This document shows, one piece after another, positions 998 through 30,265 of a DNA stretch of 44,477 bases. The DNA lies in the NCBI GenBank assembly GCA_029889005.1, contig GCA_029889005.1_4349.1; one strand, 5' to 3'. The stretch's first letter is position 1. Every line of letters starts with the position of its first letter. The position numbers were made by a program, and so were the translations under genes. The notes beneath the pieces were generated by a model. That model made no database searches. It was not told where the DNA came from and was given only the letters and a program-made list of their open reading frames with translations. Origin of the DNA: a phage.

Positions 998-3565
998 TTA
1001 ATTAAAACCATTGCTGAATCCGTCGGAGAAACCGCTGCCGTATGGCGCGACGCCGTCGTATTTATAGAATCCGTCGTCATAGTTGTAGCCAGTAATCTTA
1101 ACCGTGCGGTCGTCGCCGGGGTCGATTGAAGAAACAACTATCTTCTGAGCATTATGCCTTGCTTCGTTGCCGAATGAAAACTCAGTTTTCAGCGCACTAT
1201 TCCCTGTGTAGATTGCTTCCTCCGGCGCAGAGAGCATAATCACCTCGCGGTCGTGGTTTCCTTTGATAACAGAAATACTCTGCACGGAGCCATCGCGCTT
1301 CTTGAGGATGATGGAGTGGTCATCGCCGGGGGTAAACGTAACCGGCTGTGACAGTGTCAGCGTAAGCCCATTAACGGCAACAACATAGCCATCCTGCGGC
1401 GCGATACGCGAGCCTTTAACGACACTGATTACGCCGCCCGGTGTAGCGAGTGCCCCCTCTTCGGTAGCTTCGAACTCTACGACAACTTTACTTAACGCAT
1501 TGCGCTGATAGCGACGCCACGCCAGCCAGTACGCCTGCTGATAGTTGCGCACGCCTTTCGATTCGTATTCCTCAGTGTTTGCACCGAGTTCTTCCGGGAT
1601 ATAAATAGTTTCCTGTACGTTTGTATCCGGGTCGATGTACGAGAACGCCAGGCTATCGTAGGTAGTAGAATCGTTGAATGTGCGCGTCCATTTCTCTGTA
1701 CCGGTAGTTTTACTGCGGTGGGTGAACACCATTTCAGGCCCTGCAACCGGACGGTCGAAACGCAGCATAATGTCTGCGCCTTTACGGTACGCAGTACAAA
1801 ACACGGCTTCGGCTATAGTCTGAACGATGTCTTGCATGGTTGTGTCGTAGTCGTCGAATGTGTAGCAGAACTGCCCGGCTAATTCACTGTCAAAATACGA
1901 CTCAATTTCTTCCTGCACGGCAAGTAACTTGTCCATATTTGCCGTTGTCAGTTCCAGATTACCCACCACAGGGTCACGCGCCAGCCTGATTAGCGACTGC
2001 ACGGCCTGAGTGTTCGGTGTCATTACCGTATCGAATACGCCGTTACCTAAGTATTTGTAGCACATCTCGGTAGCAATCATGCGCAGTTCCGGTTCTGACA
2101 CCTCGGCTGCACGTGGGGTTTGTTTACGAGCACAGTGCACCGTAGTGCGGTTGCCGTAGTGCGGTGTTGTGTCCAGAGACTGTCCGTACAGGTTAGTGAA
2201 AGTAACCTCGTCGCTAACAGTACCCTCAAAATCTTTATCAGTATCGGAAACACGGCGCATACGGGCGCGGAATCTGGAAGCGGTAGGCAAGCTTCCGTAT
2301 AGGGTAATACCAGTGTAATCGGTGTTTCTCCCTGTAACAGTGCCTTGCACGGTGAATATGCCACCAACGGGCTGTTTCAATTCGTCCACCATCTGGTATT
2401 GCAGTTCCACCGTAACGGAGGCGCGGTTATAATCGCCGTTATATTTATACATGCCGTTGCTGGCGGCGACATTGGCTACAACACGGTTGACCGTACCGCG
2501 GGTGATGTACGCCCATTCAGAGAGGGAAGCCGCGTAAGTGTCCGCCGGACCTATGAGATGGTTACCCTCTTCACCTATAAACCATACAGATGTTCCTAGC
2601 TGGTTCCATATTGATTGATTTGTACTGACGTCCACAATAAGGGTCGTTTCACTAACAGAAAGAACCGTGTACCTCCCGTCCAGGTTAACCTCATTACCCA
2701 AAGACCCTGGGGTTGTATCTGCATATACGTTATCGAAGTATGCCAGGTCCCCGACCGCCAAAAACTCATCGAAACCAGCGTCATCGCCTACTACAACGCC
2801 GGTTGTTCCCTGCCGCTGGACAGTGTAGTCCTGCACGTCTATAGCGATATCATTAGGGGCGGGAAGAACAGCGCCATCGACATCGGCGTTTTTAAATGTA
2901 ACGTACAATTTCTGGTCTATAGGGTCGCCGATATGCAATTGTGGTGTGCTGGTGTTATTCGGCGAAGTGTAAGGAGAATACACCGTCACCGACGAGCCAG
3001 TTATCTCGCTGATTCGGGTATCTGCCTCAGTTACACCGTCTTCCTCAATATGCAGATACCCTCGACCGGCGTCATAGTACGCATATTCAATAAGCGCCCC
3101 CGTGGCGTTAAACACCTTATACGTCTGCATCAGGTCATTGGGTATAGTCTGCACTGTCCCGCAGATGTCATAAGAACGTTCATAAGGACGTGGCTTGTTC
3201 GAGCGGTCAGTAAGACTGTTGTTAGGCGACGTAGCCTGATTGTTGGTAGCGGAATAATTAGCGTTAGCTGCTGTGTTTAGCCCGAACAATTTGGCAATTG
3301 GCTTAAGGATGAAACTGAATACACTACCGATAGCGTCGCCGATACCACCGCCTGCACCCTCGATAATGTGGTACACGGCGTCCTCGTCTTTGAGCGCATT
3401 GAAGTCGTCTGTTACATCTGTATCATCGCCAATCTCACCGAGATAGACGCGCACAGGCACGCCGTAGGGAATACGGTTAACGACAAACTCCATCGGCATC
3501 CCGACGTGTTTTGTACGGTCGAAAGCGCCTTCAGCGTTTCGCGTGTAGTGCAGGATTATCGCCAA
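998..3565 (-). CDS. Large tail fibre / host-specificity (J-like) protein
   Basis: 855 aa ORF, TTG start with GGAG upstream, between distal tail genes and tailspike; call by size and position only. Confidence 0.5.
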   Translation of the reverse strand: MAIILHYTRNAEGAFDRTKHVGMPMEFVVNRIPYGVPVRVYLGEIGDDTDVTDDFNALKDEDAVYHIIEGAGGGIGDAIGSVFSFILKPIAKLFGLNTAANANYSATNNQATSPNNSLTDRSNKPRPYERSYDICGTVQTIPNDLMQTYKVFNATGALIEYAYYDAGRGYLHIEEDGVTEADTRISEITGSSVTVYSPYTSPNNTSTPQLHIGDPIDQKLYVTFKNADVDGAVLPAPNDIAIDVQDYTVQRQGTTGVVVGDDAGFDEFLAVGDLAYFDNVYADTTPGSLGNEVNLDGRYTVLSVSETTLIVDVSTNQSIWNQLGTSVWFIGEEGNHLIGPADTYAASLSEWAYITRGTVNRVVANVAASNGMYKYNGDYNRASVTVELQYQMVDELKQPVGGIFTVQGTVTGRNTDYTGITLYGSLPTASRFRARMRRVSDTDKDFEGTVSDEVTFTNLYGQSLDTTPHYGNRTTVHCARKQTPRAAEVSEPELRMIATEMCYKYLGNGVFDTVMTPNTQAVQSLIRLARDPVVGNLELTTANMDKLLAVQEEIESYFDSELAGQFCYTFDDYDTTMQDIVQTIAEAVFCTAYRKGADIMLRFDRPVAGPEMVFTHRSKTTGTEKWTRTFNDSTTYDSLAFSYIDPDTNVQETIYIPEELGANTEEYESKGVRNYQQAYWLAWRRYQRNALSKVVVEFEATEEGALATPGGVISVVKGSRIAPQDGYVVAVNGLTLTLSQPVTFTPGDDHSIILKKRDGSVQSISVIKGNHDREVIMLSAPEEAIYTGNSALKTEFSFGNEARHNAQKIVVSSIDPGDDRTVKITGYNYDDGFYKYDGVAPYGSGFSDGFSNGFN

Positions 3566-3921
3566 AATTCAATCTCCGTGTACGTGTCTCCGAGGTCCAC
3601 CAGCCTGTCAAGCCGTACCTGACGGGATGCAAGCTCGCAATGACTCACCATCCCGTCGAAGTAAACTCCAGCGTGCCACACGATACGACCCCCGCGGCGA
3701 TAACCCATAAGCACCGCGCAGAAGTTTTCAGGCTTATCAATTTTTGTAAGCCCCTTCGTGTCACGGTGGCCTTCGTCAAACGCTTCGTTAATTGCCGTTG
3801 GGCTTGTAACGTCGAACGCAGGGGTTTCTAACCCGGCATCCGCGCGGACAATGCGCACGTGATGCCAGCAATTGCGCTTGCGAAAGTCGTAAGGTATGCC
3901 CGTGTAGTCGTTAATATTCAT
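3556..3921 (-). CDS. Tail-associated NlpC/P60-like protein (K-like)
   Basis: 121 aa; candidate Cys/His catalytic residues (NCWHH ... WHAGVY ... SH); position between minor tail genes and fibre. Confidence 0.4.
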   Translation of the reverse strand: MNINDYTGIPYDFRKRNCWHHVRIVRADAGLETPAFDVTSPTAINEAFDEGHRDTKGLTKIDKPENFCAVLMGYRRGGRIVWHAGVYFDGMVSHCELASRQVRLDRLVDLGDTYTEIEFWR

Positions 3922-4930: not shown

Positions 4931-6933
4931 TATTTGAACCCCGGCGCATTTCTTGTGGCCTTGCGGGCCTTGCTAATCTTACTGTTGCTGTTCCGCAAAG
5001 ATGCCGCAACTTGCTCTTCTATGATGATGCGTAGACGGCCTTCATCATCCTGTTCAGTGGATACGTTGCCGATTTGAGAACTCGTGTTGTTTACGATAGT
5101 AACATTAGATGGCCCACTATTTCCGCTATTATTGCTATTTAACTGTTGTCGTGTTTGACTTGCATTTACCGCCCTGCCAGAACCCACCATCTTGATAATC
5201 TCAGGGCCGCGTTCACCAACCAGATAGCTACCACCAGCGTTCATTTGTCCGCCCTGTTCACGCGCGCCGCTAATCTTGGCGATGTTCGCCACCCCTGCCG
5301 CGACAGCCAGACCCGCGGCAACTGGGGCGAGTGCCGGACCGACAATAGGAATAGCAGCAGTTGATTTATAGGCTTCGATAGCAGCCGTGTAAGTGGCAAT
5401 AGTCGCTTGCGTTATGGCGAACGCTTTGTACGCAGCGGACGTCTCCCCTAGTGCGGATTTAGCATCCGCTGCCATGCTGCCGAATGCGTCGGCGGTGGCG
5501 TTGGCCTGTGCAATATTGCTCTGTTCGTTCAGGTTACGCACCGCATTAGCGTATTCTTCTTCACTGATTAGTTTCTGTTTAAGGAAATCGTCCAGTTGCT
5601 TAAGTTTGGCGTCATTCTGCCGTTGGATTTCCTCAAACTCTGTGCCACCCAGCGCCTGTAGTTTCTCCAGATATGCATCAGCATTGTTATACAGTGCATC
5701 TCGTTGCGCCTGAAACTCAGCCATGATGTCACTTTTCGACTTCTCATAGTCGGCGTCGCTTACAAGTTGCTTGTCGTGGAACTCCTGTAACTTAGCCAGT
5801 TTCTGTTTCTCTTTAGCGTCTATCCGTTCTAACTCTGTTCCGGTGTTTGTGTCTATTTGAGCTATAAACTGGTCTGCTGCTTTCTGTGCGCTTTCCTGCG
5901 CGCGAGCGTCGGCACGGGCTTGGGCATCTGCGCGTTTCTTAGCTGCGGCAGCGATACGATTCTGCCTGTCGATTTCCTTCTGTGCCCTGTCTGCCTTATC
6001 CTTTTCGTATGTCTTCTCGGATTGCTCTACCCCTTTCCGCTCGGCTGCGCGGGTCTTTTCCTCCACACCAAGGTAGTTAAGTTCATTTCGCAGTTTATTT
6101 ATTTCCATCTGCGCTTCTGGCGTTTTGGCCTTTATGCCGTCTAGGTAGGCGACCAGCCCCTCTCGAGCGCCAGGAACCCCGGCTGCGATTGCTTTCTGAG
6201 CAACTTCAATATTGCGTAACTCTTTGGCGGTCAACCCCGCAGCTTCCGCAGCAGATTCGTACTGGAAAGCCACGGCCCCGGCAGCGTTCCCGCCTTGGGC
6301 TATCTGGGACGCGGCAAGGTTGGTAGTCAACTTCTGAAACAGAGACTGGGCTTTCGTTACCTTATCGATAGCTTCAACAATCTTATCCGCGGTGGAGTTA
6401 GCCTGTACGGCGGTTGCCTCTAGTGCCTTATTAAGAAATGCCATCTTCTCCGCTGTTGTCGCCCCGACAGCGTCCAGTTTTTCCAGTGCGTCATTCATAT
6501 CATACACACCGGGTGTGGCCTCATTAAGAGCGTCATCGAGGAACTTAGTAGCTTCCTCCAGTTGTTTAGCGGTATCCGTTGAGTTACTCAAAGACGCGTA
6601 CAGCGCGCCGCCGATTACGGTGGCGATAGTCAATACCGTACCCGCAATTGGATTGAATGCAGACACTAACTGACTACCTTGTTGCGTGAAAGCCGTGAGG
6701 GCGGACTGCCCCCCTTGGATTTGCACGATAAAGTCCTGTACCTGATACCCAGCGTTACCTATTGACGCCCGCATTGCGTTCATCTTCGGTGTTGCCGCGG
6801 TGGTGGTGTCCGTTAGTTTCTTCGTACTGGAATCAGCTTTCCCGGCAGAACTACTAAGGTTATCTAACTGCTTTGCTGCTTGCTCCGCTCCAGTTGCCTG
6901 GACTCGTACCATTAAACTCGCGGTATCAGCCAT
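4930..6933 (-). CDS. Tail tape measure protein
   Basis: 667 aa, Ala/Gln/Lys-rich coiled-coil composition with hydrophobic Gly/Ala-rich C-terminal segment; directly downstream of chaperone pair. Confidence 0.8.
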   Translation of the reverse strand: MADTASLMVRVQATGAEQAAKQLDNLSSSAGKADSSTKKLTDTTTAATPKMNAMRASIGNAGYQVQDFIVQIQGGQSALTAFTQQGSQLVSAFNPIAGTVLTIATVIGGALYASLSNSTDTAKQLEEATKFLDDALNEATPGVYDMNDALEKLDAVGATTAEKMAFLNKALEATAVQANSTADKIVEAIDKVTKAQSLFQKLTTNLAASQIAQGGNAAGAVAFQYESAAEAAGLTAKELRNIEVAQKAIAAGVPGAREGLVAYLDGIKAKTPEAQMEINKLRNELNYLGVEEKTRAAERKGVEQSEKTYEKDKADRAQKEIDRQNRIAAAAKKRADAQARADARAQESAQKAADQFIAQIDTNTGTELERIDAKEKQKLAKLQEFHDKQLVSDADYEKSKSDIMAEFQAQRDALYNNADAYLEKLQALGGTEFEEIQRQNDAKLKQLDDFLKQKLISEEEYANAVRNLNEQSNIAQANATADAFGSMAADAKSALGETSAAYKAFAITQATIATYTAAIEAYKSTAAIPIVGPALAPVAAGLAVAAGVANIAKISGAREQGGQMNAGGSYLVGERGPEIIKMVGSGRAVNASQTRQQLNSNNSGNSGPSNVTIVNNTSSQIGNVSTEQDDEGRLRIIIEEQVAASLRNSNSKISKARKATRNAPGFK

Positions 6934-7838: not shown

Positions 7839-7878
7839 TCACTTACACCAACGTTATTAACTTAAATAAGGAATTAAA

Positions 7879-8205
7879 ATGCGTAAATTAATCATAGCCC
7901 TTGGTCTTATTTCTTTTTGCGCGGTAGGGTCCCAGTGTGAGCAAGTATATAGTGAAACCCCTTTAGTAACTTCCGGGACGCTTGATTCAGCCCCTCCGGC
8001 TGCCGTTAGTGCGTTTAAAACCGCTGCTATTCGCGAATGTAATGCTGCCGTGCGGGCTGGCAGGTCTGGCCTGGGTCTTGAATTGATGACATCCCTTGTT
8101 GTTGAGTCTGTAGATGTTAACAGCCCTACTTTCAGCAGCCTACTGTTAGCCACCCGCCTGCAAATGGTAATGACTGGGTGGGCAATAGGCGCAGAAAGTA
8201 AATAG
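7879..8205 (+). CDS. Small secreted protein (signal peptide)
   Basis: AGGA RBS; N-terminal MRKLIIALGLISFCAVGS hydrophobic signal-like segment; preferred over overlapping antisense ORF 7857..8153. Confidence 0.5.
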   Translation: MRKLIIALGLISFCAVGSQCEQVYSETPLVTSGTLDSAPPAAVSAFKTAAIRECNAAVRAGRSGLGLELMTSLVVESVDVNSPTFSSLLLATRLQMVMTGWAIGAESK

Positions 8206-15305: not shown

Positions 15306-16355
15306 TTAAGCACCGACACCAGTTACCAGGAAGGCAATCGGTACGTGCTTGCGGTCAACCACACGGTTCCAGTTGGAGGCGTTCGCCAGGTCCTGCCAGG
15401 AAGCAGAGCGCGGGGTAGTCTCGGTGCCGTTGCCAGTGATTACTGCACTGGTGAAGCTGTAACCAAACGGATGTAGCAACCAGGTCTTACGGGTCCACAG
15501 GGTTTCAACGCCGCCGCCGTTGCCGCGGGACGCTTCGCGCTCGTATTCCAGCGGGTTGGACGGAGAACCTTCACCGTAACCGATAGCGCCGTTGCCGAAG
15601 ATGATGGAGATGAACTTACGGGTCGAGCCAGTGCCGACTACGGTCATGCTGTCGTCAACAATCACGCGGTAGCCCTGGTAGGTGGCGAACATGGTGTTGT
15701 TGTCCGCGTCACGGATGAAGTCGATAAGCTGCTGCTTACGTGCCTGCGCATAAACGAAGCTATGCATCGCGATAGCCCCCAGCACTTCACCGCCGTTGCC
15801 CATCAGAGCATCGCCCATAGTCTGGGTAGCGTCGATGAACGCGCCCGCATCGAAGCCCAGAGTAGCAGACACGTCGATTACCATGTCATTCTGCTCGTGG
15901 TATGCGTCGGTAGCGGCTACGTTGTCGTTGTACAGCCCGAGCGCGGTAGCAATCAGACGGCGTTGTGCCTGACGCTGCCAGAAGTTATCCAGACGTGACG
16001 CTACGGATTGCAGCGGGTTCTGGCTGGTCAGTTCAACGGTCAAATCCGCCTGACCGAAACCTTCGTTCAGGTACGCAACGCGCACCATCATCTCGCCGGT
16101 CTGCACGTTACGCGGGGTGGCGATGTCATGGTATACGTCGTTCGAGTAGTTCGGCTCGATAGAGGTATCAATCGCTTTCCAGAAAGGAATATTAGCGACG
16201 TTGGACGGGCCGCGGGCAATCTCGGCGGCGTATGGGGTCGGGGTGAGAATACCAGACTGGAAGAACGCGGTTTTTTCTACCGGGTCCTCGGTCATATAAG
16301 ACGCCAGGACCGGGATGTTGCCAGTTACGATATCGCCGATAGTGGTAATTGCCAT
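15306..16355 (-). CDS. Major capsid protein
   Basis: 349 aa ORF directly downstream of scaffold-like gene and followed by terminator. Confidence 0.8.
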   Translation of the reverse strand: MAITTIGDIVTGNIPVLASYMTEDPVEKTAFFQSGILTPTPYAAEIARGPSNVANIPFWKAIDTSIEPNYSNDVYHDIATPRNVQTGEMMVRVAYLNEGFGQADLTVELTSQNPLQSVASRLDNFWQRQAQRRLIATALGLYNDNVAATDAYHEQNDMVIDVSATLGFDAGAFIDATQTMGDALMGNGGEVLGAIAMHSFVYAQARKQQLIDFIRDADNNTMFATYQGYRVIVDDSMTVVGTGSTRKFISIIFGNGAIGYGEGSPSNPLEYEREASRGNGGGVETLWTRKTWLLHPFGYSFTSAVITGNGTETTPRSASWQDLANASNWNRVVDRKHVPIAFLVTGVGA

Positions 16356-16357: not shown

Positions 16358-17113
16358 TTATTTCCTCAGGGCTTTAAGTTGCCGTTCAAATTCGGCAGGG
16401 TTCGATTTATACAGGGCTAAACGCTCTGCTTCACTCATGTCTTTAAACGCTGGTGCGGCCCCGCCGCCTTTGCTACCGGAAGCCCCGCCGCCGGAAGCTG
16501 CATTTGCTTTGATCAAATGCGAAAACGCCTTGTGTTCGCGCAGGTATTTGCGGAACTGTTCCGGGTCAGTCGTGATTACGTTACCGTCTGCACCAACAAA
16601 CTTAGTAACCACATCATCGCCTTCGAACTCAGTCTTAACGAACGGCGCAAGAATGTCCACTGCTTCTGGGGTAATAAAGTCACCCGCGAAAGAGCCTAGC
16701 ACCGCTTTACGTTCGCTGCCGAGGATACGCTCTGCCATTCTGGAGATGCGACCGTCTTTCTCGGCTAACACCGGGTCATACTGGCTACGAATCGTCTTTT
16801 CGAACTCATCCATCTTACCAGCGGCTTTTAACGCCTCCTGGTGCGCGCGCTGCCGTTCTTCTTCGGCCTCTTTTGCTTTGCGAGCGGCTTCTTTCTTCTC
16901 CGCCAACAATGCTTCCTGATTAGCCTTAAGCCCGGCAACTTCTTTCTCAATCAGCGCCTGAACTTCTTCAGCGGTGAACATTTTCGGCGCGTCACCGCCA
17001 CCAGCTTTATCTTCTGCCCCAGCTTCTTCCTGGAACGGATAACGTAAAAAACGATTCATAGTCAGTATGTCCCCTGGACGTTGGAACCCGGGCCACCCGG
17101 ATTTACATGTCAA
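16358..17113 (-). CDS. Scaffolding protein
   Basis: Charged coiled-coil-like (EEAGAEDK ... KEAEEERQRAHQEALKAAGK) ORF immediately upstream of capsid gene; start may be internal ATG ~17059. Confidence 0.65.
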   Translation of the reverse strand: MTCKSGWPGFQRPGDILTMNRFLRYPFQEEAGAEDKAGGGDAPKMFTAEEVQALIEKEVAGLKANQEALLAEKKEAARKAKEAEEERQRAHQEALKAAGKMDEFEKTIRSQYDPVLAEKDGRISRMAERILGSERKAVLGSFAGDFITPEAVDILAPFVKTEFEGDDVVTKFVGADGNVITTDPEQFRKYLREHKAFSHLIKANAASGGGASGSKGGGAAPAFKDMSEAERLALYKSNPAEFERQLKALRK

Positions 17114-17141
17114 GAATAAATTATTCCAACATGCAAGGCAA

Positions 17142-17405
17142 CTATTCCAGAATATTCCTCACGTAATCCTGCAACATGAACACTTTCAGTCTCAGTTGCC
17201 GTACACATTCTGCGTTCTGAACGTCGATAGCCAAATCCTCGTCGGCGTCGCTACTTGGCGCTGCCAGTTTGCACGGAGGCTGCATCATCGTCGTATCCGG
17301 TAATGGAATTAGCGTTTGCGACGGCGCGGGACTTGAGCAGGACGCGAGCATCGTCGAAAGTGCACACGCTGCGACCCGGCGTTTTAATGTATTTAACGAC
17401 TTCAC
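17142..17405 (-). CDS. Outer-membrane spanin (Rz1-like lipoprotein)
   Basis: GTG with AGGTGA RBS; signal peptide ending in lipobox LASC, Pro-rich mature part; starts inside the Rz-like gene in another frame and extends past its stop. Confidence 0.6.
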   Translation of the reverse strand: MKSLNTLKRRVAACALSTMLASCSSPAPSQTLIPLPDTTMMQPPCKLAAPSSDADEDLAIDVQNAECVRQLRLKVFMLQDYVRNILE

Positions 17406-17637
17406 GGGTAATCACCTCTGATTTCGTCTTGCCTTCGTTGTCGGCGGCGGCGGCCTTTGATTCGTCCTGCTGCTGCCGTTGTGTTTTCTTCGCTAACTCA
17501 GCCTGCGCTTTCTGCTGTTGCTGCGAAACGAGATTCGCCCGGCCTTCGTGCCAGCCGCTGCGGTACTGATAAATGCCGTGTGTGTAAGCCAGGATGATGA
17601 AACATGCTCCTGCTACGACGGTTGCTTTAAGATTCAT
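17251..17637 (-). CDS. Inner-membrane spanin (Rz-like)
   Basis: Strong AAGGAG RBS; N-terminal transmembrane segment then Gln/Lys/Ala-rich coiled-coil-like region; contains embedded Rz1-like ORF. Confidence 0.6.
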   Translation of the reverse strand: MNLKATVVAGACFIILAYTHGIYQYRSGWHEGRANLVSQQQQKAQAELAKKTQRQQQDESKAAAADNEGKTKSEVITREVVKYIKTPGRSVCTFDDARVLLKSRAVANANSITGYDDDAASVQTGSAK

Positions 17638-17650
17638 GTTTCTCCTTTCT

Positions 17651-17681
17651 CGATAAGTAAAGCCCCGCCTTAAAGCGGGGC
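17651..17681 (-). terminator. Hairpin terminator/attenuator upstream of spanin genes
   Basis: GCCCCGC-CTTAAA-GCGGGGC hairpin followed on minus strand by TTTACTTAT, then RBS of Rz-like gene. Confidence 0.45.
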
Positions 17682-17758
17682 GCTAGTCCTTATCATTTAA
17701 ACATAGAAACGGCGTAATCTAAGTAAACCTGTTACTTTTTACACAAGCAATAGAGTAT

Positions 17759-17890
17759 GGCCCTTCCGAACGCGTCAGCGTAACTACACTCAGGACTTAC
17801 GTCCCGCTCCGTTACCTGCCCGCGCCGCGGTCGCTTGTTCATACTTCACAAGCTCAGGTGGAGCTTAGCACATTTTCAGTGAAAAGTCAA
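17759..17890. repeat. Conserved ~130 bp non-coding element, copy 1
   Basis: Aligns base-for-base over long stretches with 30133..30265 (GGCCCTTCCGAA ... AACTACACTCA ... CCGCGGTCGCTTG ... TCACAAGCTCAG ... AGCTTAGCA ... AAAAGTCAA), with compensatory hairpin changes. Confidence 0.7.
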
Positions 17891-17956
17891 CTATTCGAAT
17901 AGTTTATTCCAATATTTACAATTTAGTGGAATAAATGGAATAGTCTGTATCTGTGC

Positions 17957-17985
17957 TTGCGCGCACCAATATAATAGGGTACTAT
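17957..17985 (+). promoter_or_regulatory. Sigma70-like promoter, class A (TTGCGC-N17-TACTAT)
   Basis: Same ~35 bp motif as 7810..7838; downstream ATG 18014; opposite strand also reads TTGATA-N17-TATATT (possible divergent promoter). Confidence 0.5.
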
Positions 17986-18013
17986 TCAGATATCAAAACG
18001 AGAGGAGAGTGAT

Positions 18014-18226
18014 ATGTGTGATATTAGAATGGCAAAAATGAAGAAAGCGAAAGATATCAAAGTTGGTGATAAATTGGTGAAGTTTGTTAACGGTAAAATG
18101 AAACGCGCAGAAGTTACATCCGTTGAGACTGTGGAAGGGGAGGTAGTAGGTGTAAACATCTGCATCCGCTACAGCGGTTCCGGTTTCGTTATAGTAAGAC
18201 CTTATAGAGAGCTAGAAGTATGTTAA
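18014..18226 (+). CDS. Small early protein, hypothetical
   Basis: 70 aa ORF with GAGAGGAGAG RBS after class A promoter, followed by terminator; weak similarity to 40883..41074 product. Confidence 0.5.
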   Translation: MCDIRMAKMKKAKDIKVGDKLVKFVNGKMKRAEVTSVETVEGEVVGVNICIRYSGSGFVIVRPYRELEVC

Positions 18227-18228
18227 AA

Positions 18229-18256
18229 CTAAGGCCCCATAATGGGGCCTTTTATC
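18229..18256 (+). terminator. Intrinsic terminator
   Basis: AAGGCCCC-ATAAT-GGGGCCTT hairpin then TTTATCATT. Confidence 0.7.
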
Positions 18257-18716
18257 ATTCTGGCTTAGTAACCTTCGCCGCTTTGCTTACCGCCTCTACT
18301 CCATCGGCATCAGTAACTTTAACGAAGTATTCGCCGACCGCATTAACCGTCAGAGACAGAGCCTCCTCAGGCGCATTCACCACTTCCTTACCGTCTTTGT
18401 ACCAGGTCAGAGAATACGGCGCTTTGCCTGCCTTAACCTCGACAGTGATGGTTGCGCTGCCATCTGTAAGTTCAGTGTCTTTCGGTTGCACAGAGAAATA
18501 CACGTCACCAGCGTCCGCCAGATACGGAATTTCATAAAGCATACCAGCGGCAGAGAGTGCGATACCTGTCTTGTCTGCGTACGGCATCTCGTCTACAGGT
18601 ATACCTAGTACACTTTCATCCTCAACGTAGGTTACGTTCTCACCGGAGCCAGACACCCGAGCGTACTGGACTACGCGACGTGACGGCACATCAGTTACTT
18701 TGAAAAAACCCATCAT
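18255..18716 (-). CDS. Structural protein with C-terminal Ig-like domain
   Basis: C-terminal APYSLTWYKDGKEV ... GEYFVKVTDADG similar to the Ig-like ORF at 14956..15177. Confidence 0.5.
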   Translation of the reverse strand: MMGFFKVTDVPSRRVVQYARVSGSGENVTYVEDESVLGIPVDEMPYADKTGIALSAAGMLYEIPYLADAGDVYFSVQPKDTELTDGSATITVEVKAGKAPYSLTWYKDGKEVVNAPEEALSLTVNAVGEYFVKVTDADGVEAVSKAAKVTKPE

Positions 18717-19759
18717 TAATCCCCTTTCAGATAATCAGCAACACGTTTATCGAGTTCCGCCATCTGCTTAAGCGTAAGCGGATTCCCGAAACCATCTACA
18801 GATTTTACGCGAAACTCTTCCGGCGATATACCGCTGTTACGGAAAATCTTACCTCGCACCGGGCCGAGCGCCTGGTCCTGAAACCACGCCGGTTGTTGTT
18901 TAAGGAACTCGTAGTAAGTGGTGTCTGCGCTTACCTGAGTGCCACCTTCCGCGCCTTTAGCCGCGCGTTTTGCGCCTTTATCGAGGAAGTCGAACTCGGA
19001 ACTGATTACCGGAGCCGTGCACGACCGGCAGTTCGGATGGGCTGGGGGCATCGGCCCCTTACCAATTTCCCACGTCATCCCGTCTCTGACCCTGCAAATC
19101 GTACTGGTGCGGCTGTCAAGCGTTGACACCCACTCGTACTTCTCGATGATGTCGTCGTTCTGGCGGTACGTCTCGTTACGGGCCTCGTTGGATACGTGGG
19201 ACAGCGCGGTGCGGATTACCGTAGTCGCGTTACGTTCTGAGATGTCGGCTAGTCCACCAGCGCCAACAACATTCTTAACAATCTGCCGTGTGGTTTGACC
19301 TTGCACAAAGCCCATCTTAACTCCAGTTACAAGACGTGCTACTTCCGTTTCGCCCCATCCAGACATCAGCTTGGTGAAATCAACGGGCTTGTCGCTCAAT
19401 GATAATGGTTGAAACTCGGCAGCGGCCCATACCTGCTCAGCGGTAGGCGTAACAAATTCCGCGTCTACGTTGGCGGTCAGTGTCTTTACGTTCCACTCAG
19501 CCTCGTACGCCGCCAGTTCCTTAAGGTCGTCTGTTAGCTTTGTTTGCCAGTCACCCGTAATACCGGTTAGTGCTTCTTCCAGGTCGCGTAACAGTTTATT
19601 CAGTCGCGCAGTGCTGCGACCGTCGTCACCGAATAACAGCACCTGCCGTTTGATTTCGTCCCGCATCTCCTGAATGAACGGTGCTAGGTCTTTCACTTCA
19701 CCAGATGCGGTGCGTTGCAGCCAAATCTGGTGGCTGATTATTGATGTCAGTAAGCTCAT
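18716..19759 (-). CDS. Head morphogenesis protein (SPP1 gp7-like)
   Basis: 347 aa with conserved HPNCRSC-type motif; position after portal. Confidence 0.7.
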   Translation of the reverse strand: MSLLTSIISHQIWLQRTASGEVKDLAPFIQEMRDEIKRQVLLFGDDGRSTARLNKLLRDLEEALTGITGDWQTKLTDDLKELAAYEAEWNVKTLTANVDAEFVTPTAEQVWAAAEFQPLSLSDKPVDFTKLMSGWGETEVARLVTGVKMGFVQGQTTRQIVKNVVGAGGLADISERNATTVIRTALSHVSNEARNETYRQNDDIIEKYEWVSTLDSRTSTICRVRDGMTWEIGKGPMPPAHPNCRSCTAPVISSEFDFLDKGAKRAAKGAEGGTQVSADTTYYEFLKQQPAWFQDQALGPVRGKIFRNSGISPEEFRVKSVDGFGNPLTLKQMAELDKRVADYLKGD

Positions 19760-23956: not shown

Positions 23957-24013
23957 TATCAGTTATATAGGCCGTGGCGTGGCGCTCGTTTACCGTCGCC
24001 GCCGTAATGGTCG

Positions 24014-24286
24014 TTAGCTACCGCTATAACCCAGGCATTCGGAAAGACTAAAAGTTGCATTAAATTCCTCAAGGTCTATTTTACGAATACATGGTGAAAG
24101 GCAATCAGCGAAAACCAACTCACCAGAATCAATAACGACGAATCGCCAGCCTTTGAATATGTTCTCGGAAATACCCTCCGCAACTTCGCGTACATTAGGC
24201 ATGTGTTCTGGGAAATCGTGGAAGTTTCTGGACAAAAATTCAAGTGCCTCACACCGGTTTATGTGGTAGTTATCATATTCAATCAT
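24014..24286 (-). CDS. Hypothetical early protein
   Basis: 90 aa ORF in locally AT-rich stretch. Confidence 0.4.
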   Translation of the reverse strand: MIEYDNYHINRCEALEFLSRNFHDFPEHMPNVREVAEGISENIFKGWRFVVIDSGELVFADCLSPCIRKIDLEEFNATFSLSECLGYSGS

Positions 24287-24543
24287 TCCCCGCTCTCCTC
24301 TTTAGCGATGCGTTGCTCTGTTTTAGTGATACCGCGGCGCGTGAATAACACCGGGCTTGTCTTAACGTGCGTCATAAGGCGGTTATTATAAATTACATGG
24401 CGCTCGCATTTCACGTCTTTGCTGTACTTCGCAATCGTCATTTCGTTGAGGCCTGTTTGTCGGCACGTCTCCGCCATCGTGCCAAATTCTTTAATAAGGT
24501 TAGGAATGCTGGTAATCATCCTAAGAAATTCCTCGTCGTCCAC
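24283..24543 (-). CDS. Hypothetical early protein
   Basis: 86 aa ORF coupled to downstream gene. Confidence 0.4.
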   Translation of the reverse strand: MDDEEFLRMITSIPNLIKEFGTMAETCRQTGLNEMTIAKYSKDVKCERHVIYNNRLMTHVKTSPVLFTRRGITKTEQRIAKEESGE

Positions 24544-24710
24544 ATCGCATTCGGATATTTGTTATCGCGGTCCTGCACTACGGCGACCATGTTGCCGCGT
24601 TGCACCAGGCAGAAGTGCCGCTGCTGCTCTCCGTTGTAGCGGCGCCAGATTGCCTCTTCGATTGCTGCGTTGATGTCACTGAACACTGTCTCTACCCCAC
24701 ATAAACCCAA
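24516..24710 (-). CDS. Hypothetical early protein
   Basis: 64 aa ORF in same-strand array. Confidence 0.3.
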   Translation of the reverse strand: MGLCGVETVFSDINAAIEEAIWRRYNGEQQRHFCLVQRGNMVAVVQDRDNKYPNAMWTTRNFLG

Positions 24711-24772
24711 TCAATACGCCGATAAAATAACCTGCTGCTACAAGGCCAATAACCACCTCGAGACTCATACTC

Positions 24773-25006
24773 TTACCCCACTATCTCATCACCGAGCCAC
24801 GCCGTTTCTCGTATATCGTCTACCGCACAAGCGGCGTGCTCCCGGCTAATTGCAAAAATGTAGAAGCTGAACTTCTTCCCGTCGGCGTCGATGTGGTTAA
24901 CCGAGTAAGGTTTCCACAGGACGCCCTCAATAACTACCGGCTTAGGCGACTCCATACGCTTTACCGCATTTGATGCACGTGGCCCGATGTAATCCACCAA
25001 CCACAT
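24773..25006 (-). CDS. Hypothetical early protein
   Basis: 77 aa ORF in same-strand array. Confidence 0.35.
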   Translation of the reverse strand: MWLVDYIGPRASNAVKRMESPKPVVIEGVLWKPYSVNHIDADGKKFSFYIFAISREHAACAVDDIRETAWLGDEIVG

Positions 25007-25190
25007 GTAGGTAGTAATCGTGCTCGCAAGGCTTTTCGTCCGCTTTCAACTTATCAAGCAACATCTTAAACGCCTCCAGTTGAAATTCACCGTTAATCGA
25101 CAATTGCCCTCCTAACGTCTGTTTCTCTGACTCAAGCACCAGAATACGGCGCTCCAGCGATGCGATTGTGATTTTAGGCATTGGTGTCAC
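24942..25190 (-). CDS. Hypothetical protein with C-terminal zinc-ribbon-like CxxC
   Basis: 82 aa; C-terminal CEHDYY ... CIKCGK. Confidence 0.35.
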   Translation of the reverse strand: MTPMPKITIASLERRILVLESEKQTLGGQLSINGEFQLEAFKMLLDKLKADEKPCEHDYYLHVVGGLHRATCIKCGKAYGVA

Positions 25191-25647
25191 CTTTGTTCAG
25201 ATTGAAGCGGTTAATCAGTTCACGGCGGCGCTCCATAAGTTTATCTACCTGCCGTAAGTGGTGCTCTATGTGGGCGTCAATCCACACTATTTCAGATTCA
25301 CCAGTCGCGGATTCTACGCTGAGTTTCTCGTATTCGTTGTTAGTCATTATTTACGCTCTCCCCACATGCGATTGAGATACTTGTTCTTGTCCGGCCCCGG
25401 GAAACTGTTACGTTTCATCAGTTCCTCGCGTGTCGGGAACGGGGTGTGACTGACTTTATGGCCTACTCGTAATGGTTGGCTTACTTGACCTTGTTCGCTC
25501 ATTTCTTCTCTCCTGCATAAGCTGCTTTAAGTGTCTGCATCGCAGCGAACCAGAACGCGTCCGCTGGAATGCTGTTGCTCAGGTTACTAACTGCGATGCG
25601 CGCCATCAGTTGCGCGTCTTTGAATGCTTCGATATCTGTGATTTTCA

Positions 25648-25845
25648 TTAGTTATTCTCCAGTATTTCTAACGCTTTCACGATGTAACGTTTACGTAAAA
25701 CATCAGTCTGCGCGCTATTAGCCCTGCGTATGTAGCCCGCAGCGGCCCTCATCTGTAGTTTTTCCACCGAACCATTCCCTATAACTGATGCGATACATTT
25801 AACTTCGAGTTCTTCGGTTATTTCTATCGTCGATACGTTGCCCAT
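25648..25845 (-). CDS. Small protein with GYIRRANSA-TD-LR module
   Basis: 65 aa; shares AAAGYIRRANSAQTDVLRKRYIVKALE with the 28021..28509 product. Confidence 0.5.
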   Translation of the reverse strand: MGNVSTIEITEELEVKCIASVIGNGSVEKLQMRAAAGYIRRANSAQTDVLRKRYIVKALEILENN

Positions 25846-25879
25846 TTCTCTCTACTCCGTTCTCGTTGTCGATGAAGTA

Positions 25880-25908
25880 AATATAATAGGGTCGAGGATA
25901 ATAGTCAA
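25880..25908 (-). promoter_or_regulatory. Sigma70-like promoter (TTGACT-N17-TATATT)
   Basis: Minus-strand hexamers with 17 bp spacer ~35 nt upstream of 25845 start. Confidence 0.5.
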
Positions 25909-25929
25909 CTAGTCATCACAGAAAATAGA

Positions 25930-25963
25930 TAAAAAAAAATCCCGGCTGGGTCAGGGCCGGGAT
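25930..25963 (-). terminator. Strong intrinsic terminator
   Basis: Minus strand hairpin CCCGGCC-CTGACCCAG-CCGGG followed by nine T. Confidence 0.75.
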
Positions 25964-25996
25964 AAAACTGGAGAGCAGAGGGATGGAGCATGAGGT
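25931..25996 (-). ncRNA. Candidate small RNA (~65 nt)
   Basis: Minus-strand TTGACA-N17-GATACT (~26031..26003) then ~65 nt ending at the 25930..25963 terminator; 5' part C/U-rich (CCUC, CCCUCUGCUCUCC); no RBS-preceded ORF. Confidence 0.3.
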
Positions 25997-26160
25997 GATT
26001 TAAGTATCGTCGGATTAGTCTTATGTGTCAACAGAGATTCTCCGGCACGCGTTACCGCACTTTGGCTCGACCTTGTTACAGGTCCGCGAGGGTGATGATA
26101 CCCGGAATTCCCTCAATGTTGTTTAATCTTCTGTTGCCGTTAGTCTATCAAACTACTGGC

Positions 26161-26193
26161 AAAATAAAACCCGGATTCGCGGCCCGGGTTTAT
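26161..26193. terminator. Intrinsic terminator after endolysin gene
   Basis: AACCCGG-N9-CCGGGTT hairpin with T-rich runs on both strands; just downstream of endolysin stop. Confidence 0.65.
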
Positions 26194-26228
26194 GGAGATG
26201 CAAGCACAAGCGGCGTATGACGATTATA

Positions 26229-26768
26229 TCAGCCTTTCACCGCGCGTCCAATAGCAACCGCCTCTTGCCACGGCTTACCGTCGAACAATGCCAGCCGCCC
26301 GGCGGTACGGCGGCGCAGGCCGAGTAACGGTTTGCCGTTCTGGTTGATGAACAGCGCCAGCTTAGCCCGCAGAGTCGTGACGTCACCAGAACGCAGTGCC
26401 TTACCTGTGCCAGTAGTAGCCGCAATCACACCGGCACCAGCGTTATACACCAGGTCGCACACTGCGTCGAACTGAGCCTGTGTCAGTGAGTGATGCGCTG
26501 CAGCGTCAACGGCGGCTACGGCCTTAGCCATATCGCGATTGAGTAGCAGAAGACCCTGGCCGGGCGTGATGGTCTGCCCCGCCTTAACATGCGGGCCATA
26601 GCTTCCATACCCAATAGTCAGGTACTTCTCATTCGGTGTAGCGCGATACGCGGTTCCGCGGAATCCCTCGAACGCGGCAGTGAATTTGATGCCATTATCT
26701 GAAATATTTCGAGACACGCTTATGCCCTCCGTACGACAGCCCCGCCTGACGAATCTGACGCAGCGCAA
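26229..26768 (-). CDS. Endolysin (phage lysozyme-like)
   Basis: FEGFRGTAYRATPNEKYLTIGYG N-terminal catalytic-region pattern and QFDAVCDLVYNAG core; likely true start is GTG ~26717 preceded by GGAGGG. Confidence 0.8.
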   Translation of the reverse strand: MRCVRFVRRGCRTEGISVSRNISDNGIKFTAAFEGFRGTAYRATPNEKYLTIGYGSYGPHVKAGQTITPGQGLLLLNRDMAKAVAAVDAAAHHSLTQAQFDAVCDLVYNAGAGVIAATTGTGKALRSGDVTTLRAKLALFINQNGKPLLGLRRRTAGRLALFDGKPWQEAVAIGRAVKG

Positions 26769-26973
26769 CTAATGTGATTAATGTCTCAGGCAGCGTCGGT
26801 GACATGCTGCCCTGTAACAGGTGGATACATCCGGCGGCGCAGACAATAGCAGTTAGGATATACAGCACACGACCAAACAGGCCATCATCTACGCTGGGGT
26901 GGTATACGTTAAACAGCGATGTGCTCCCGATTGCGAGCATACCACCAAACCAGAATAACTCATTCATTACCAC
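26695..26973 (-). CDS. Holin-like membrane protein (2 predicted TMDs)
   Basis: Two hydrophobic segments then charged C-terminus; immediately upstream of and overlapping endolysin start. Confidence 0.5.
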   Translation of the reverse strand: MVMNELFWFGGMLAIGSTSLFNVYHPSVDDGLFGRVLYILTAIVCAAGCIHLLQGSMSPTLPETLITLVALRQIRQAGLSYGGHKRVSKYFR

Positions 26974-27268
26974 CTCCGCGACGTGCGATGTATTCTCCGG
27001 CGACGATACCGGAGAGACGGGAATAGATGGGCATCCAGAGAATTGCGATGATGAATCCGAGGCCAGCTATCTCGCGCTCGCCAGTAATACCGAACCATTG
27101 AGCGGCGAGAGGCGCACCGAATACGGCGCACGCAAAGCCAGTGGTGAGAAAACAGAGAGCATCGACAGGGCCGGTAATAGTGGCTTTGTGTTGCCGTAAG
27201 CCTATTACCCCACCAGCTAATGCGGCAGCGAGAAGCCACCCCGTCACTGTTTCAGTAAATTTATCCAA
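26960..27268 (-). CDS. Holin (3 predicted TMDs)
   Basis: 102 aa with three hydrophobic helices and charged C-terminus; first gene of lysis cassette. Confidence 0.6.
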   Translation of the reverse strand: MDKFTETVTGWLLAAALAGGVIGLRQHKATITGPVDALCFLTTGFACAVFGAPLAAQWFGITGEREIAGLGFIIAILWMPIYSRLSGIVAGEYIARRGGGNE

Positions 27269-29680: not shown

Positions 29681-29689
29681 TCCTCTGTC

Positions 29690-29956: not shown

Positions 29957-30132
29957 GATAATAGTTACGTTGCCGTTGTGATTCTTTTGTTTCTTAAAAG
30001 AGTACGCAACGCAGTGGGTGGGCTAACGCCCACCCCAGCGGAGTGAAGTACTCTCTACCTTGCTTACGGCAACTATAGAAACTTTTAATTATCAGTGACT
30101 TGAGTATTTAGGCGGGATTAACAATAGACTTT

Positions 30133-30265
30133 GGCCCTTCCGAAAGCGCCAGCGGAACTACACTCAAGTGCCTAATGGCACGCGTTGCGTTCCCTGCCGC
30201 TCCGCGGTCGCTTGCGATATCTCACAAGCTCAGTGAAGCTTAGCATATTTTTAAGTAAAAGTCAA
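30133..30265. repeat. Conserved ~130 bp non-coding element, copy 2
   Basis: Homologous to 17759..17890; contains GTGCC-TAAT-GGCAC and AAGCT-CAGTG-AAGCTT hairpins. Confidence 0.7.

Follow-up and report, generated by a model that had tools for sequence, protein, structure and literature searches.

A probable Jersey-family overlapped spanin pair in the head module of a Kagunavirus-like coliphage, preceded by a conserved structured leader

In the 44,477 bp phage sequence analyzed here (NCBI GenBank assembly GCA_029889005.1, contig GCA_029889005.1_4349.1; hereafter the window), an initial annotation had described an Rz/Rz1-type spanin pair set between head-morphogenesis and scaffold genes, unlinked from a holin and an endolysin some 9 kb away at 26.2–27.3 kb, and preceded by a hairpin. 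This arrangement raises the question of whether the two genes do encode a spanin, how they are organized, and what the noncoding sequence ahead of them might do. The window belongs to a Kagunavirus-like coliphage, with ~96% identity to Bas73 across the 2.5 kb surrounding the pair. Both genes lie on the minus strand, and the features of the locus were found where they had been annotated (Table 1). Taken as a whole, the evidence is best explained by overlapping genes for the two components of a 'Jersey'-family spanin, with overlapped architecture, an identification that we consider very probable.

The longer gene encodes the putative inner-membrane component (i-spanin) and matches PHROG 2536, labelled 'Rz-like spanin', at 7e-55. 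Its highest-scoring 19-residue hydrophobic window, at residues 5–23 (ATVVAGACFIILAYTHGIY; Kyte-Doolittle 1.59), is the sole strongly hydrophobic stretch of the protein, in agreement with the annotated N-terminal anchor and pointing to a single membrane anchor with a periplasmic remainder. The AF2 model, generated from a single sequence and of low confidence (mean pLDDT 62, pTM 0.29), places helices at residues 3–84 and 94–107, the first unbroken from residue 3; the coiled coil described initially is thus only a possible reading. Sequence identity of the i-spanin across 47 viral contigs ranges from 59 to 98%, reaching 90–98% with most of the Kagunavirus-like contigs retrieved, and Cys92, predicted to be periplasmic, is kept in 48 of 49 distinct homologues. 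Across 38 distinct leaders, its Shine-Dalgarno sequence has an invariant AAAGG core, after which the base is either A or G (AAGGAG/AAGGGG).

The second gene, for the putative outer-membrane lipoprotein (o-spanin), is read in the +1 frame relative to the i-spanin. It opens at a GTG that is the first possible start downstream of an in-frame stop, with the GAGGTGAT Shine-Dalgarno sequence ending 5 nt upstream; in relatives the start falls at the same site, as GTG or ATG, and the Shine-Dalgarno sequence is kept as GAGGTGAT, GAGGTAAT or GGAGGC. The product begins with a predicted lipoprotein signal (MKSLNTLKRR-VAACALSTM-LAS-C; lipobox LASC, Cys23) with Ser rather than Asp at position +2, and the predicted mature protein of 65 aa contains seven prolines and has a Pro-rich N-terminus. 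Two PHROG profiles labelled 'Rz-like spanin' match it, 1267 at 3e-17 (residues 8–86) and 5672 at 3e-30, and tblastn with the o-spanin as the sole query gave matches in 665 phage records. The lipobox cysteine is present in every relative even where the lipobox itself has changed (LASC, LSAC, LSGC, LNGC, ITGC, LCSC), and Cys45 and Cys67 are invariant.

Table 1. Features of the spanin locus and related elements in the window.
Feature	Coordinates	Strand	Basis or remark
o-spanin, 87 aa, GTG start	17405..17142	-	ORF, PHROG 1267/5672 matches
o-spanin Shine-Dalgarno GAGGTGAT	17411..17418	-	inside i-spanin coding sequence
i-spanin, 128 aa, ATG start	17637..17251	-	ORF, PHROG 2536 match
i-spanin Shine-Dalgarno AAGGAG	17642..17647	-	sequence
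GC-rich hairpin GCCCCGC-TTTAAG-GCGGGGC	17662..17681	-	scan and sequence
76-nt irregular hairpin, three stacked helices, GUAA loop	17758..17833	-	folds and covariation
Short 5' stem-loop GCUUG...CAAGC, adjoining the long hairpin	17833..17853	-	read by eye from alignment
Predicted sigma-70-type promoter TTGACT-17 nt-(TGc)TAAGCT	17862..17890	-	predicted to start the leader
Second promoter and structured leader copy	30132..30265	-	head of minus-strand early operon
Mu-F-like head morphogenesis gene	19759..18716	-	
Hoc-like gene	18716..18255	-	
Terminator-like hairpin	18231..18251	read as bidirectional	scan scored + strand only; minus reading from sequence
Scaffold gene	17059..16358	-	
Major capsid gene	16355..15306	-	
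Terminator-like hairpin after capsid gene, inside structural operon	15290-15271		called strong
Holins	27268..26960 and 26973..26695	-	PHROG 2359, PHROG 2508
Endolysin, Phage_lysozyme PF00959	ends 26229	-	profile match

A relaxed lipoprotein-signal filter was applied to ORFs of at least 40 aa in all six frames of the window. Four ORFs passed, the o-spanin alone with a Shine-Dalgarno sequence. The other three (5857..6144 and 1263..1388 on the plus strand, 3645..3779 on the minus strand) were rejected, having TTG starts and no Shine-Dalgarno sequence and lying out of frame or antisense within larger genes; the window yielded no further credible lipoprotein ORF or candidate spanin. A unimolecular spanin of the T1 gp11 type was also set aside, given the charged rather than hydrophobic C-terminus of the o-spanin (RQLRLKVFMLQDYVRNILE) and the lack of another credible lipoprotein ORF. 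The sequence, the filter and the conservation bear out the annotated Pro-rich lipoprotein ORF that runs past the i-spanin stop in another frame. The 'classic embedded' layout ascribed to it does not hold: the two frames overlap by 155 nt, and the o-spanin stop (17142) lies 109 nt past that of the i-spanin (17251). By the definition of Kongari et al. (2018; PMC6139136), the architecture is overlapped, not embedded. Among relatives the length of the overlap ranges from 8 to 173 nt.

Several public records depict a shorter o-spanin. Bas73, fBC-Eco01 and Ent3 annotate a 144–147-nt gene starting MQPPC, and the PHROG 5672 profile is 47 aa long, as might be expected if the 128-aa protein were the sole real gene product and the 87-codon frame were open by chance or translated only in its last 47 codons. 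Variation within the overlap also falls on position 2 of the o frame, so that the o-spanin N-terminus is weakly constrained. We nevertheless find this reading barely tenable. The full o frame is free of stops in all 40 distinct homologous sequences, the GTG/ATG start and its Shine-Dalgarno sequence are kept in place, and every lineage retains the lipobox cysteine and the hydrophobic stretch preceding it despite sequence turnover. PHROG 1267 covers residues 8–86, and the numbering of Cys45 and Cys67 by Kongari et al. (2018; PMC6139136) is that of the full-length protein; a 47-aa version, lacking a signal peptide, could not exit the cytoplasm. In the part read only in the o frame, diversity by codon position (0.084/0.033/0.243) bears the signature of a translated frame. 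These patterns indicate that the o-spanin frame exceeds chance expectation and that both frames are under selection. The 47-aa o-spanin of many GenBank records and of PHROG 5672 is a truncated form without its signal peptide, and the 87-aa call of the initial annotation, with its open frame and its conserved start and lipobox, is the better one. The practical value of the spanin analysis lies in this correction: the o-spanin should be annotated as an 87-aa protein with a GTG/ATG start and a lipoprotein signal, not as a signal-less 47-aa fragment.

Assignment of the full-length pair to a family is straightforward. The Jersey overlapped family, which includes K1G, K1H, K1ind1-3 and HK578, is characterized by a 155-bp overlap and by a full-length o-spanin in which Cys45 and Cys67 do not vary (Kongari et al., 2018; PMC6139136). 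The window pair reproduces the overlap and both cysteines exactly, and PHROG matches, tblastn against phages and the published family list together settle its Jersey membership. Close relatives carry annotations of Rz-like spanin, o-spanin or putative spanin for the pair, and both frames are kept across the related phage loci examined. With E values up to 0.01 allowed, no Pfam family was matched by either protein, not even those of lambda Rz and Rz1, and searches of NCBIfam and PDB sequences with both proteins gave no meaningful match. The resemblance to lambda Rz/Rz1 is thus one of architecture, not of detectable sequence homology.

The genomic surroundings of the pair also agree with the initial description. 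Gene coordinates and profile matches place it between the head-morphogenesis and scaffold genes, and the holin-holin-endolysin cassette (26229..27268), on the same minus strand, is 8.6–9.6 kb away, with no spanin-like ORF following the endolysin and no spanin attached to the cassette. The terminator-like hairpin at 18231..18251 is read as closing the upstream portal/head-morphogenesis/Hoc-like block together with a small plus-strand gene; a tRNA/tmRNA scan returned none. Within the Guernseyvirinae, Kagunavirus, Jerseyvirus and Cornellvirus carry the pair at this place in the head module too, as do Serratia phage Smarc3 and Dhillonvirus. The rule in this phage group is for the pair to lie apart from holin and endolysin, as genome papers have already pointed out, which makes the separation less surprising than the initial annotation implied.

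This distance could be taken to suggest that the pair encodes a membrane protein and an outer-membrane lipoprotein that travel with the head module and serve a role other than lysis, such as superinfection exclusion, receptor masking (cf. T5 Llp and Cor-type lipoproteins) or assembly. Such a role would accord with the position in the head block and with the failure to detect homology with lambda Rz or Rz1. Our literature search found no experiment on the Jersey spanin family, so the case for its function is built on anatomy, homology and context. We judge a non-lysis role very unlikely. An anchored helical protein overlapped in the +1 frame by a Pro-rich lipoprotein, with conserved periplasmic cysteines, is the defining anatomy of a spanin (PMC6139136). 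In Klebsiella phage 2 LV-2017, a homologous pair with ~40% identity lies directly after the lysozyme gene, downstream of Q, and both homologues thereby take the place of Rz in a lambdoid Q-lysozyme cassette. The window encodes holins and an endolysin and presents no other spanin candidate, and phages that infect Gram-negative bacteria normally require one. PHROG matches, conservation of both frames and the published family uphold the annotation of an Rz/Rz1-type spanin pair unlinked from its holin and endolysin. The pair itself offers little that is new, as it confirms an already catalogued family in the position customary for its phage group; that position, common to Dhillonvirus too, does show that linkage to holin and endolysin is dispensable for spanin genes.

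The mode of action of spanins is established for lambda Rz/Rz1, and by analogy the window pair may work as follows. The 128-aa i-spanin would be held in the inner membrane by its N-terminal helix, with a largely helical domain in the periplasm. The o-spanin would be translated in the +1 frame from the internal GTG, using its own Shine-Dalgarno sequence, then exported, lipidated at Cys23, cut by signal peptidase II and directed to the outer membrane, its +2 residue being Ser and not Asp. The two proteins would join through their C-terminal parts to bridge the envelope, possibly with homotypic disulfides through the conserved Cys92 of the i-spanin and Cys45/Cys67 of the o-spanin, and the complex would remain inactive for as long as the peptidoglycan holds. 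After the endolysin has been let out by the holins and has broken down the wall, the complex would fuse or disrupt the outer membrane. Since such a complex is harmless until the wall is degraded, its genes need not adjoin those for holin and endolysin.

In this phage group, the spanin genes come first after a conserved promoter and leader in the head module and shortly precede the genes for scaffold and capsid. The hairpin noted initially in front of the Rz ribosome-binding site is real and conserved through compensatory changes, and it is the last element of a noncoding structured leader of ~200 nt. The leader is predicted to start at a sigma-70-type promoter, TTGACT...TAAGCT, that is conserved in Kagunavirus and Jerseyvirus loci and occurs twice in the window against zero expected copies. 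Two stem-loops begin ~10 nt past the predicted transcription start. The shorter one, read by eye, takes the form ACGCU-UUC-AGCGU in Jerseyvirus; RNAalifold paired its columns differently. The 76-nt hairpin shows the same architecture in independent MFE folds of the Kagunavirus and Jerseyvirus types, with covariation at 12 of its 23 pairs. The GC-rich hairpin (17681–17662) has 7–8 bp and a loop of 4–6 nt, depending on the terminal pair, and ends ~15 nt before the i-spanin Shine-Dalgarno sequence. Its stem is maintained by compensatory changes, from CG to GC in eight sequences or UA in one, and from GC to AU in one. The hairpin passes a terminator scan (8 pairs, 7 of them GC) with a moderately U-rich tail, TTTACTTATC; in Jerseyvirus the tail, TTAGCGTAT, is U-poor even though the stem is kept, which makes efficient intrinsic termination doubtful.

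Two further candidate elements near the pair were discarded. A 36-aa ORF (17842..17732), annotated as 'hypothetical protein' in Bas73, was rejected as a leader peptide or small gene because a deletion in Jerseyvirus removes its ATG and contig L026 carries 1-nt indels in it. A second sigma-70 promoter between o-spanin and scaffold, with TTGACA at 17111–17106, was not accepted because no -10 hexamer lies 16–18 nt away and the TTGACA is absent in Jerseyvirus.

A second copy of the promoter and structured leader was identified in the window, with a promoter match and a covariance-model score of 66.7 bits (E 3e-13). This copy is absent from Bas73 and Jerseyvirus Ent3, so the two-copy layout is not general. 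The two covariance models built on the leader hairpin, R1 and R2, gave no significant match in Cornellvirus PhiSTP1, Serratia phage Smarc3, Dhillonvirus Pubbukkers, Klebsiella phage 2 LV-2017 or the HK022 immunity region, and a search of HK022 positions 24000–34000 with R2 and filters off yielded nothing below E = 1. By eye, and without statistical support, the Cornellvirus leader has in common a GUAA-capped hairpin, UGAGU and ATAGTCTATT. Rfam searches of the whole window at gathering thresholds, and of positions 17000–18400 at E up to 5, returned nothing credible, so that the leader belongs to no Rfam family, and neither a description of it nor any relevant transcription study of the Guernseyvirinae was found in the literature searched.

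With its conserved promoter, covarying RNA and conserved hairpin upstream of spanin, scaffold and capsid genes, this leader is a more useful lead than the spanin pair itself. It could act in attenuation, antitermination or RNA stability. The hairpin ahead of the spanin genes may set the amount of transcription, or of stable mRNA, that reaches the spanin, scaffold and capsid genes, possibly by partial termination modulated by the leader RNA or by protection of the mRNA end. Control of read-through or mRNA stability by the leader would explain late gene dosage in these virulent siphophages, which depend on the host polymerase.

A more specific proposal, which we advance only tentatively, is that the leader is a cis-acting processive antiterminator similar to HK022 put. 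Polymerase starting at TTGACT...TAAGCT would, on this somewhat improbable account, read through the hairpin at 17681–17662, the post-capsid terminator and later ones, at which polymerases initiated at other promoters would halt. In Kagunavirus and Jerseyvirus, the genes for spanin, scaffold and capsid might then, conceivably, be gated by a cis-acting two-stem-loop RNA of ~100 nt following a sigma-70 promoter, which would alter polymerase or recruit a factor so that transcription could proceed past the pre-spanin hairpin and the terminators of the structural operon. It would be an unlikely but possible functional analogue of HK022 put or lambda pR'/tR', without detectable homology to either, with a second copy heading the early/lysis/terminase operon in some Kagunaviruses, the window included. 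The layout invites the comparison: two adjacent stem-loops sit just past a sigma-70 promoter with a GC hairpin ~85–105 nt later, the structure is maintained by covariation, terminator-like hairpins (e.g., 15290–15271) lie within the structural operon, and two copies each head a long co-directional operon. The put RNAs are likewise ~70 nt, promoter-proximal, formed by two stem-loops and present in two copies (PMC9378689). Against it stand the failure of the covariance model to match the HK022 immunity region, Cornellvirus, Smarc3 or Dhillonvirus, and the missing second copy in Bas73 and Ent3; moreover, the same anatomy would serve equally well for cleavage by RNase III, stabilisation of the 5' end, binding of a protein or a small RNA of ~200 nt.

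Compared with known systems, the leader resembles HK022 putL/putR and the lambda pR'-6S RNA-tR' module in placing a promoter-proximal structured RNA or short leader and a terminator-like hairpin ahead of lysis and structural genes, and resembles put in being present in two copies in the window (PMC9378689). It differs from put in that neither its sequence nor its structure matches the HK022 immunity region and in a second copy that is not conserved across relatives; the annotation of the close relative Bas73 includes no Q-like antiterminator.

The spanin pair shares with lambda Rz/Rz1 a predicted type II inner-membrane protein, a Pro-rich lipoprotein of the outer membrane encoded by the same DNA in the +1 frame, periplasmic cysteines, and a presumed disruption of the outer membrane after endolysin action. 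It differs in that the lambda genes are embedded whereas the window o-spanin passes the i-spanin stop by 109 nt, in lying outside the lysis cassette, and in having no detectable sequence homology. The mature lambda o-spanin is also shorter, at ~40 aa as opposed to 65 aa. LysB/LysC of P2, reportedly the prototype of the overlapped class, have the same overlapped geometry but lie inside the lysis cassette and are of another sequence family than the window pair. Kongari et al. (2018; PMC6139136) count P2 among the overlapped spanin families and place the PseT.3/PseT.2 spanin genes of T4 at a distance from its holin and endolysin, as in the window. The T4 genes differ in their separated architecture, sequence family and genomic neighbourhood. 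With the Jersey family, in contrast, the relation is one of direct membership: the profile matches are strong, the overlap and Cys45/Cys67 are the same, and so are the phage group (K1G/K1H/K1ind Kagunaviruses) and the head-module position. The window pair shows no difference of substance from this family and is best described as another of its alleles.

A 2.5-kb query around the pair matched 482 phage records, mostly Kagunavirus and Jerseyvirus (Guernseyvirinae) with Escherichia and Salmonella hosts, the closest being Escherichia phage Bas73 (96% identity). At 44.5 kb, the window is as long as a complete genome in this group. The minus strand carries almost every structural, lysis and small early gene of the window, and the spanin pair is therefore to be read on that strand. 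The pair lies 3' of a Mu-F-like head morphogenesis gene and a Hoc-like gene, with the scaffold and major capsid genes directly after it, and is separated from the endolysin stop by 8.6 kb and from the first holin start by 9.6 kb, all on the same strand. Gene order thus bears out the initial annotation in placing the pair between head morphogenesis and scaffold genes, far from holin and endolysin.

The same head-module position is occupied by the pair in Kagunavirus Bas73 and fBC-Eco01, Jerseyvirus Ent3, Serratia phage Smarc3 and Dhillonvirus Pubbukkers, and also in Cornellvirus PhiSTP1, but there its two genes are "separated", overlapping by 8 nt. The FSL_SP-031 pair has likewise been described as separated, and the T4 spanins have been noted as unlinked (Kongari et al., 2018; PMC6139136). 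The fBC-Eco01 paper reports spanin genes at the genome start and holins and endolysin near the end, and describes RP180 as organized similarly. The separation of the pair from holin and endolysin is real, and neither new nor surprising. As established for lambda, the spanin complex remains inactive as long as the wall is intact, and linkage to holin and endolysin is therefore not required.

Homology searches matched the i-spanin end to end with PHROG 2536 "Rz-like spanin" (7e-55), and the o-spanin with PHROG 1267 (residues 8-86, 3e-17) and PHROG 5672 (residues 41-87 only, 3e-30). Kongari et al. (2018; PMC6139136) file a 27-member "Jersey" family, including Kagunaviruses K1G, K1H and K1ind1-3 and Dhillonvirus HK578, under the overlapped architecture, with a 155-bp overlap and constant o-spanin cysteines 45 and 67. 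The window pair matches these figures exactly, which together with the PHROG matches supports its reading as an Rz/Rz1-like spanin pair. The layout, initially described as embedded, is instead overlapped, with the o-spanin gene running 109 nt past the i-spanin stop. Neither spanin matches the Pfam families built on lambda Rz/Rz1, any NCBIfam model or any PDB chain; what is shared with lambda Rz/Rz1 is architecture and presumed mechanism, with no detectable homology. The pair belongs to a published family and sits where such genes usually lie in the genome; it is therefore already known. A Kagunavirus-like mosaic locus, L038 (IMGVR_UViG_3300045988_013393), combines a Kaguna-type leader and i-spanin N-terminus with a Cornellvirus-type o-spanin N-terminus and an overlap of only 14 nt, turning the overlapped pair into a separated one.

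Homologues of the o-spanin were found by tblastn in 665 phage records. In the lambdoid Klebsiella phage 2 LV-2017 both subunits have homologues, about 40% identical, that follow immediately on the lysozyme, with a Q-like antiterminator upstream; this is the Rz slot of the canonical cassette and lends independent support to a lysis role. No spanin-like gene was found after the endolysin in the window. Holins and endolysin are present, no other spanin-like gene or credible lipoprotein ORF is, and the pair at 17.1-17.6 kb is the only candidate in the window for the outer-membrane step.

The i-spanin frame (128 aa) opens with an ATG preceded by an AAGGAG ribosome-binding site. Its sole strongly hydrophobic stretch, ATVVAGACFIILAYTHGIY, falls within the first 25 residues, in line with the N-terminal anchor initially proposed; beyond them Gln, Ala, Lys and Glu abound, and Cys92, one periplasmic cysteine, is kept in 48 of 49 distinct sequences. 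A single-sequence AlphaFold model predicts a long helix (3-84) and a second one (94-107) at low confidence (pLDDT 62), so the coiled coil initially proposed stays putative.

Inside the i-spanin gene, the Shine-Dalgarno sequence GAGGTGAT ends 5 bases upstream of the o-spanin GTG, the earliest possible start after an in-frame stop, in frame +1 relative to the i-spanin. The 87-codon frame begins with a textbook lipoprotein signal made up of MKSLNTLKRR, VAACALSTM and a lipobox, LAS-C23, the +2 residue being Ser. The lipobox and the Pro-rich stretch after it agree with the initial description of this ORF, and two more cysteines (45 and 67) follow. A relaxed lipoprotein-signal filter, applied across the six frames of the window to every ORF of 40 aa or more, passed four ORFs, of which the o-spanin alone is preceded by a Shine-Dalgarno sequence. 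The remaining three start at TTG within larger genes and were rejected, leaving no other credible lipoprotein ORF. Among 47 related viral contigs, together with annotated phages, 42 loci (window included) presented the exact pair geometry, yielding 40 distinct sequences, none with a stop codon in the o frame. In the o-only part, past the i-spanin stop, codon positions 1, 2 and 3 differ in nucleotide diversity (0.084/0.033/0.243) as expected of a translated frame. Filter uniqueness, the open frame and codon-position diversity all argue, at the sequence level, that the second frame is real. In the overlap, variation falls on i-frame position 3, which is o-frame position 2, so the i-spanin C-terminus is the more constrained partner. 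The o-spanin signal peptide tolerates change, yet every lineage keeps the basic N-terminus, hydrophobic stretch and lipobox cysteine, with LASC, LSAC, LSGC, LNGC, ITGC and LCSC lipoboxes and a GTG or ATG start at the same site.

Bas73, fBC-Eco01, Ent3 and many others carry the o-spanin annotated as a 144-147-nt gene starting at MQPPC (47-48 aa), without signal peptide and lipobox, and PHROG 5672 is built from this fragment. It is the 87-aa product that fits the conserved start, Shine-Dalgarno sequence and lipobox. The intergenic region from the o-spanin stop to the scaffold start is almost invariant in Kagunavirus and Jerseyvirus. It contains a GAATAA-T-TTATTC palindrome, a CCGGG-TGG-CCCGG hairpin also seen in Smarc3, and a small GTCC-AGG-GGAC hairpin carrying the scaffold ribosome-binding site, and may control the expression of scaffold and capsid through translation or processing.

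Coordinates of the spanin, lysis and leader features and of other elements in the window
Feature	Position	Strand	Remarks
i-spanin	17637..17251	-	
o-spanin, full	17405..17142	-	
o-spanin, short annotation	17142-17285	-	Bas73_0009, fBCEco01_11, SEP3_gp08, PHROG 5672
Holin 1	27268..26960	-	
Holin 2	26973..26695	-	
Endolysin, glycoside-hydrolase-24	ends at 26229	-	
Sigma-70-type promoter, TTGACT-17 nt-TGcTAAGCT	17890-17862	-	predicted
76-nt irregular hairpin, GUAA loop	17833-17758	-	folds and covariation
GC hairpin	17681-17662	-	
Promoter, leader and GC hairpin module	17638-17950	-	
Module, second copy	30010-30270	-	
76-nt hairpin, second copy	30210-30132	-	
o-spanin to scaffold intergenic region	17060-17141	-	
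22-nt motif GAATAGTACCCTATTATATTGG	7819-7840	-	
22-nt motif GAATAGTACCCTATTATATTGG	17966-17987	-	
22-nt motif GAATAGTACCCTATTATATTGG	29926-29947	+	
Cargo hot spot	17990-18255		
Terminator-like hairpin in cargo	18231-18251		

The hairpin initially noted upstream of the Rz ribosome-binding site holds up: GCCCCGC-TTTAAG-GCGGGGC, followed by TTTACTTATC, passes a terminator-like scan, and the 91 nt surrounding it (17630-17720) have a more stable fold than shuffled versions (z = -3.5). Compensatory changes have preserved the hairpin in Kagunavirus and Jerseyvirus (GCCCTGC/GCAGGGC, GCCCGGC/GCCGGGC, GCCCGAC/GTCGGGC), and another GC hairpin takes its place in Cornellvirus. The tail in Jerseyvirus, TTAGCGTAT, contains few U residues, which makes efficient intrinsic termination doubtful there.

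Alignment of the 700 nt upstream of the i-spanin start among relatives revealed stronger conservation in the final 270 nt or so than in the flanking genes, with a variable cargo region farther upstream. The conserved stretch opens with TATTCC repeats and a CTATTCGAATAG palindrome (minus strand), after which comes the sigma-70-type promoter. Downstream of the promoter follow a short stem-loop, the 76-nt hairpin, about 85 nt of partly conserved sequence, the GC hairpin and the i-spanin ribosome-binding site. A 36-codon ORF annotated there in Bas73 was rejected as a gene, its frame not being conserved, and the leader is thus most likely noncoding. Separate minimum-energy folds of the Kaguna and Jersey types give the same three-helix architecture, with helices 2 and 3 differing in sequence. 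In a model-fitted alignment of the 76-nt hairpin, which is biased towards the structure in a way that the separate folds are not, pairing holds in 95.8% of cells and both sides have changed in 12 of 23 pairs; none of 500 shuffles reached those values, and slid controls paired only 27-43%.

A covariance model detected a second hairpin copy in the window (66.7 bits, E 3e-13) with compensatory differences, preceded by a nearly identical promoter and followed about 105 nt downstream by a GC hairpin (about 85-105 nt on across the two modules). This copy heads the minus-strand early operon running into holins, endolysin and terminase. About 41 phage records contain it, encompassing only some Kagunaviruses, and Bas73 and Jerseyvirus Ent3 lack it; the spanin-gene copy is therefore the general one, across Kagunavirus and Jerseyvirus.

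Unrelated content fills the cargo hot spot, between the Hoc-like gene and the leader promoter, in related loci L016, L026, L033, L036 and L053, and an HNH endonuclease and a transcriptional regulator do so in PhiSTP1. The window carries there a 70-aa plus-strand ORF with no PHROG match, ending at a terminator-like hairpin. The 22-nt motif occurs three times in the window against 0.01 expected, its complement presenting a TATAAT or CATAAT hexamer that faces genes at strand-switch points: a plus-strand cluster from 7879, the small plus-strand ORF 18014..18226 and the first minus-strand early gene (29893). It probably represents early or "moron" promoters that form one class and share an operator. 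The small plus-strand ORF at 7879-8205, within an opposite-strand insert among tail genes near Ent3's annotated Imm-like superinfection-immunity protein, opens with MRKLIIALGLISFCAVGSQC, which resembles a secretion signal.

The conserved structured leader ending in the initially noted hairpin is the part of the finding worth follow-up. This hairpin would be the closing element of a leader setting transcript supply to the spanin, scaffold and capsid genes. The leader may work by attenuation or antitermination; it may also be an RNase III processing site, stabilize the mRNA or constitute a small RNA of roughly 200 nt. No Rfam family matches it, and its covariance model has no match in the HK022 immunity region, Cornellvirus, Smarc3 or Dhillonvirus. 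In layout, the leader recalls HK022 put, of about 70 nt, with two stem-loops, promoter-proximal and in two copies (PMC9378689), as well as the pR'-6S-tR' arrangement of lambda.
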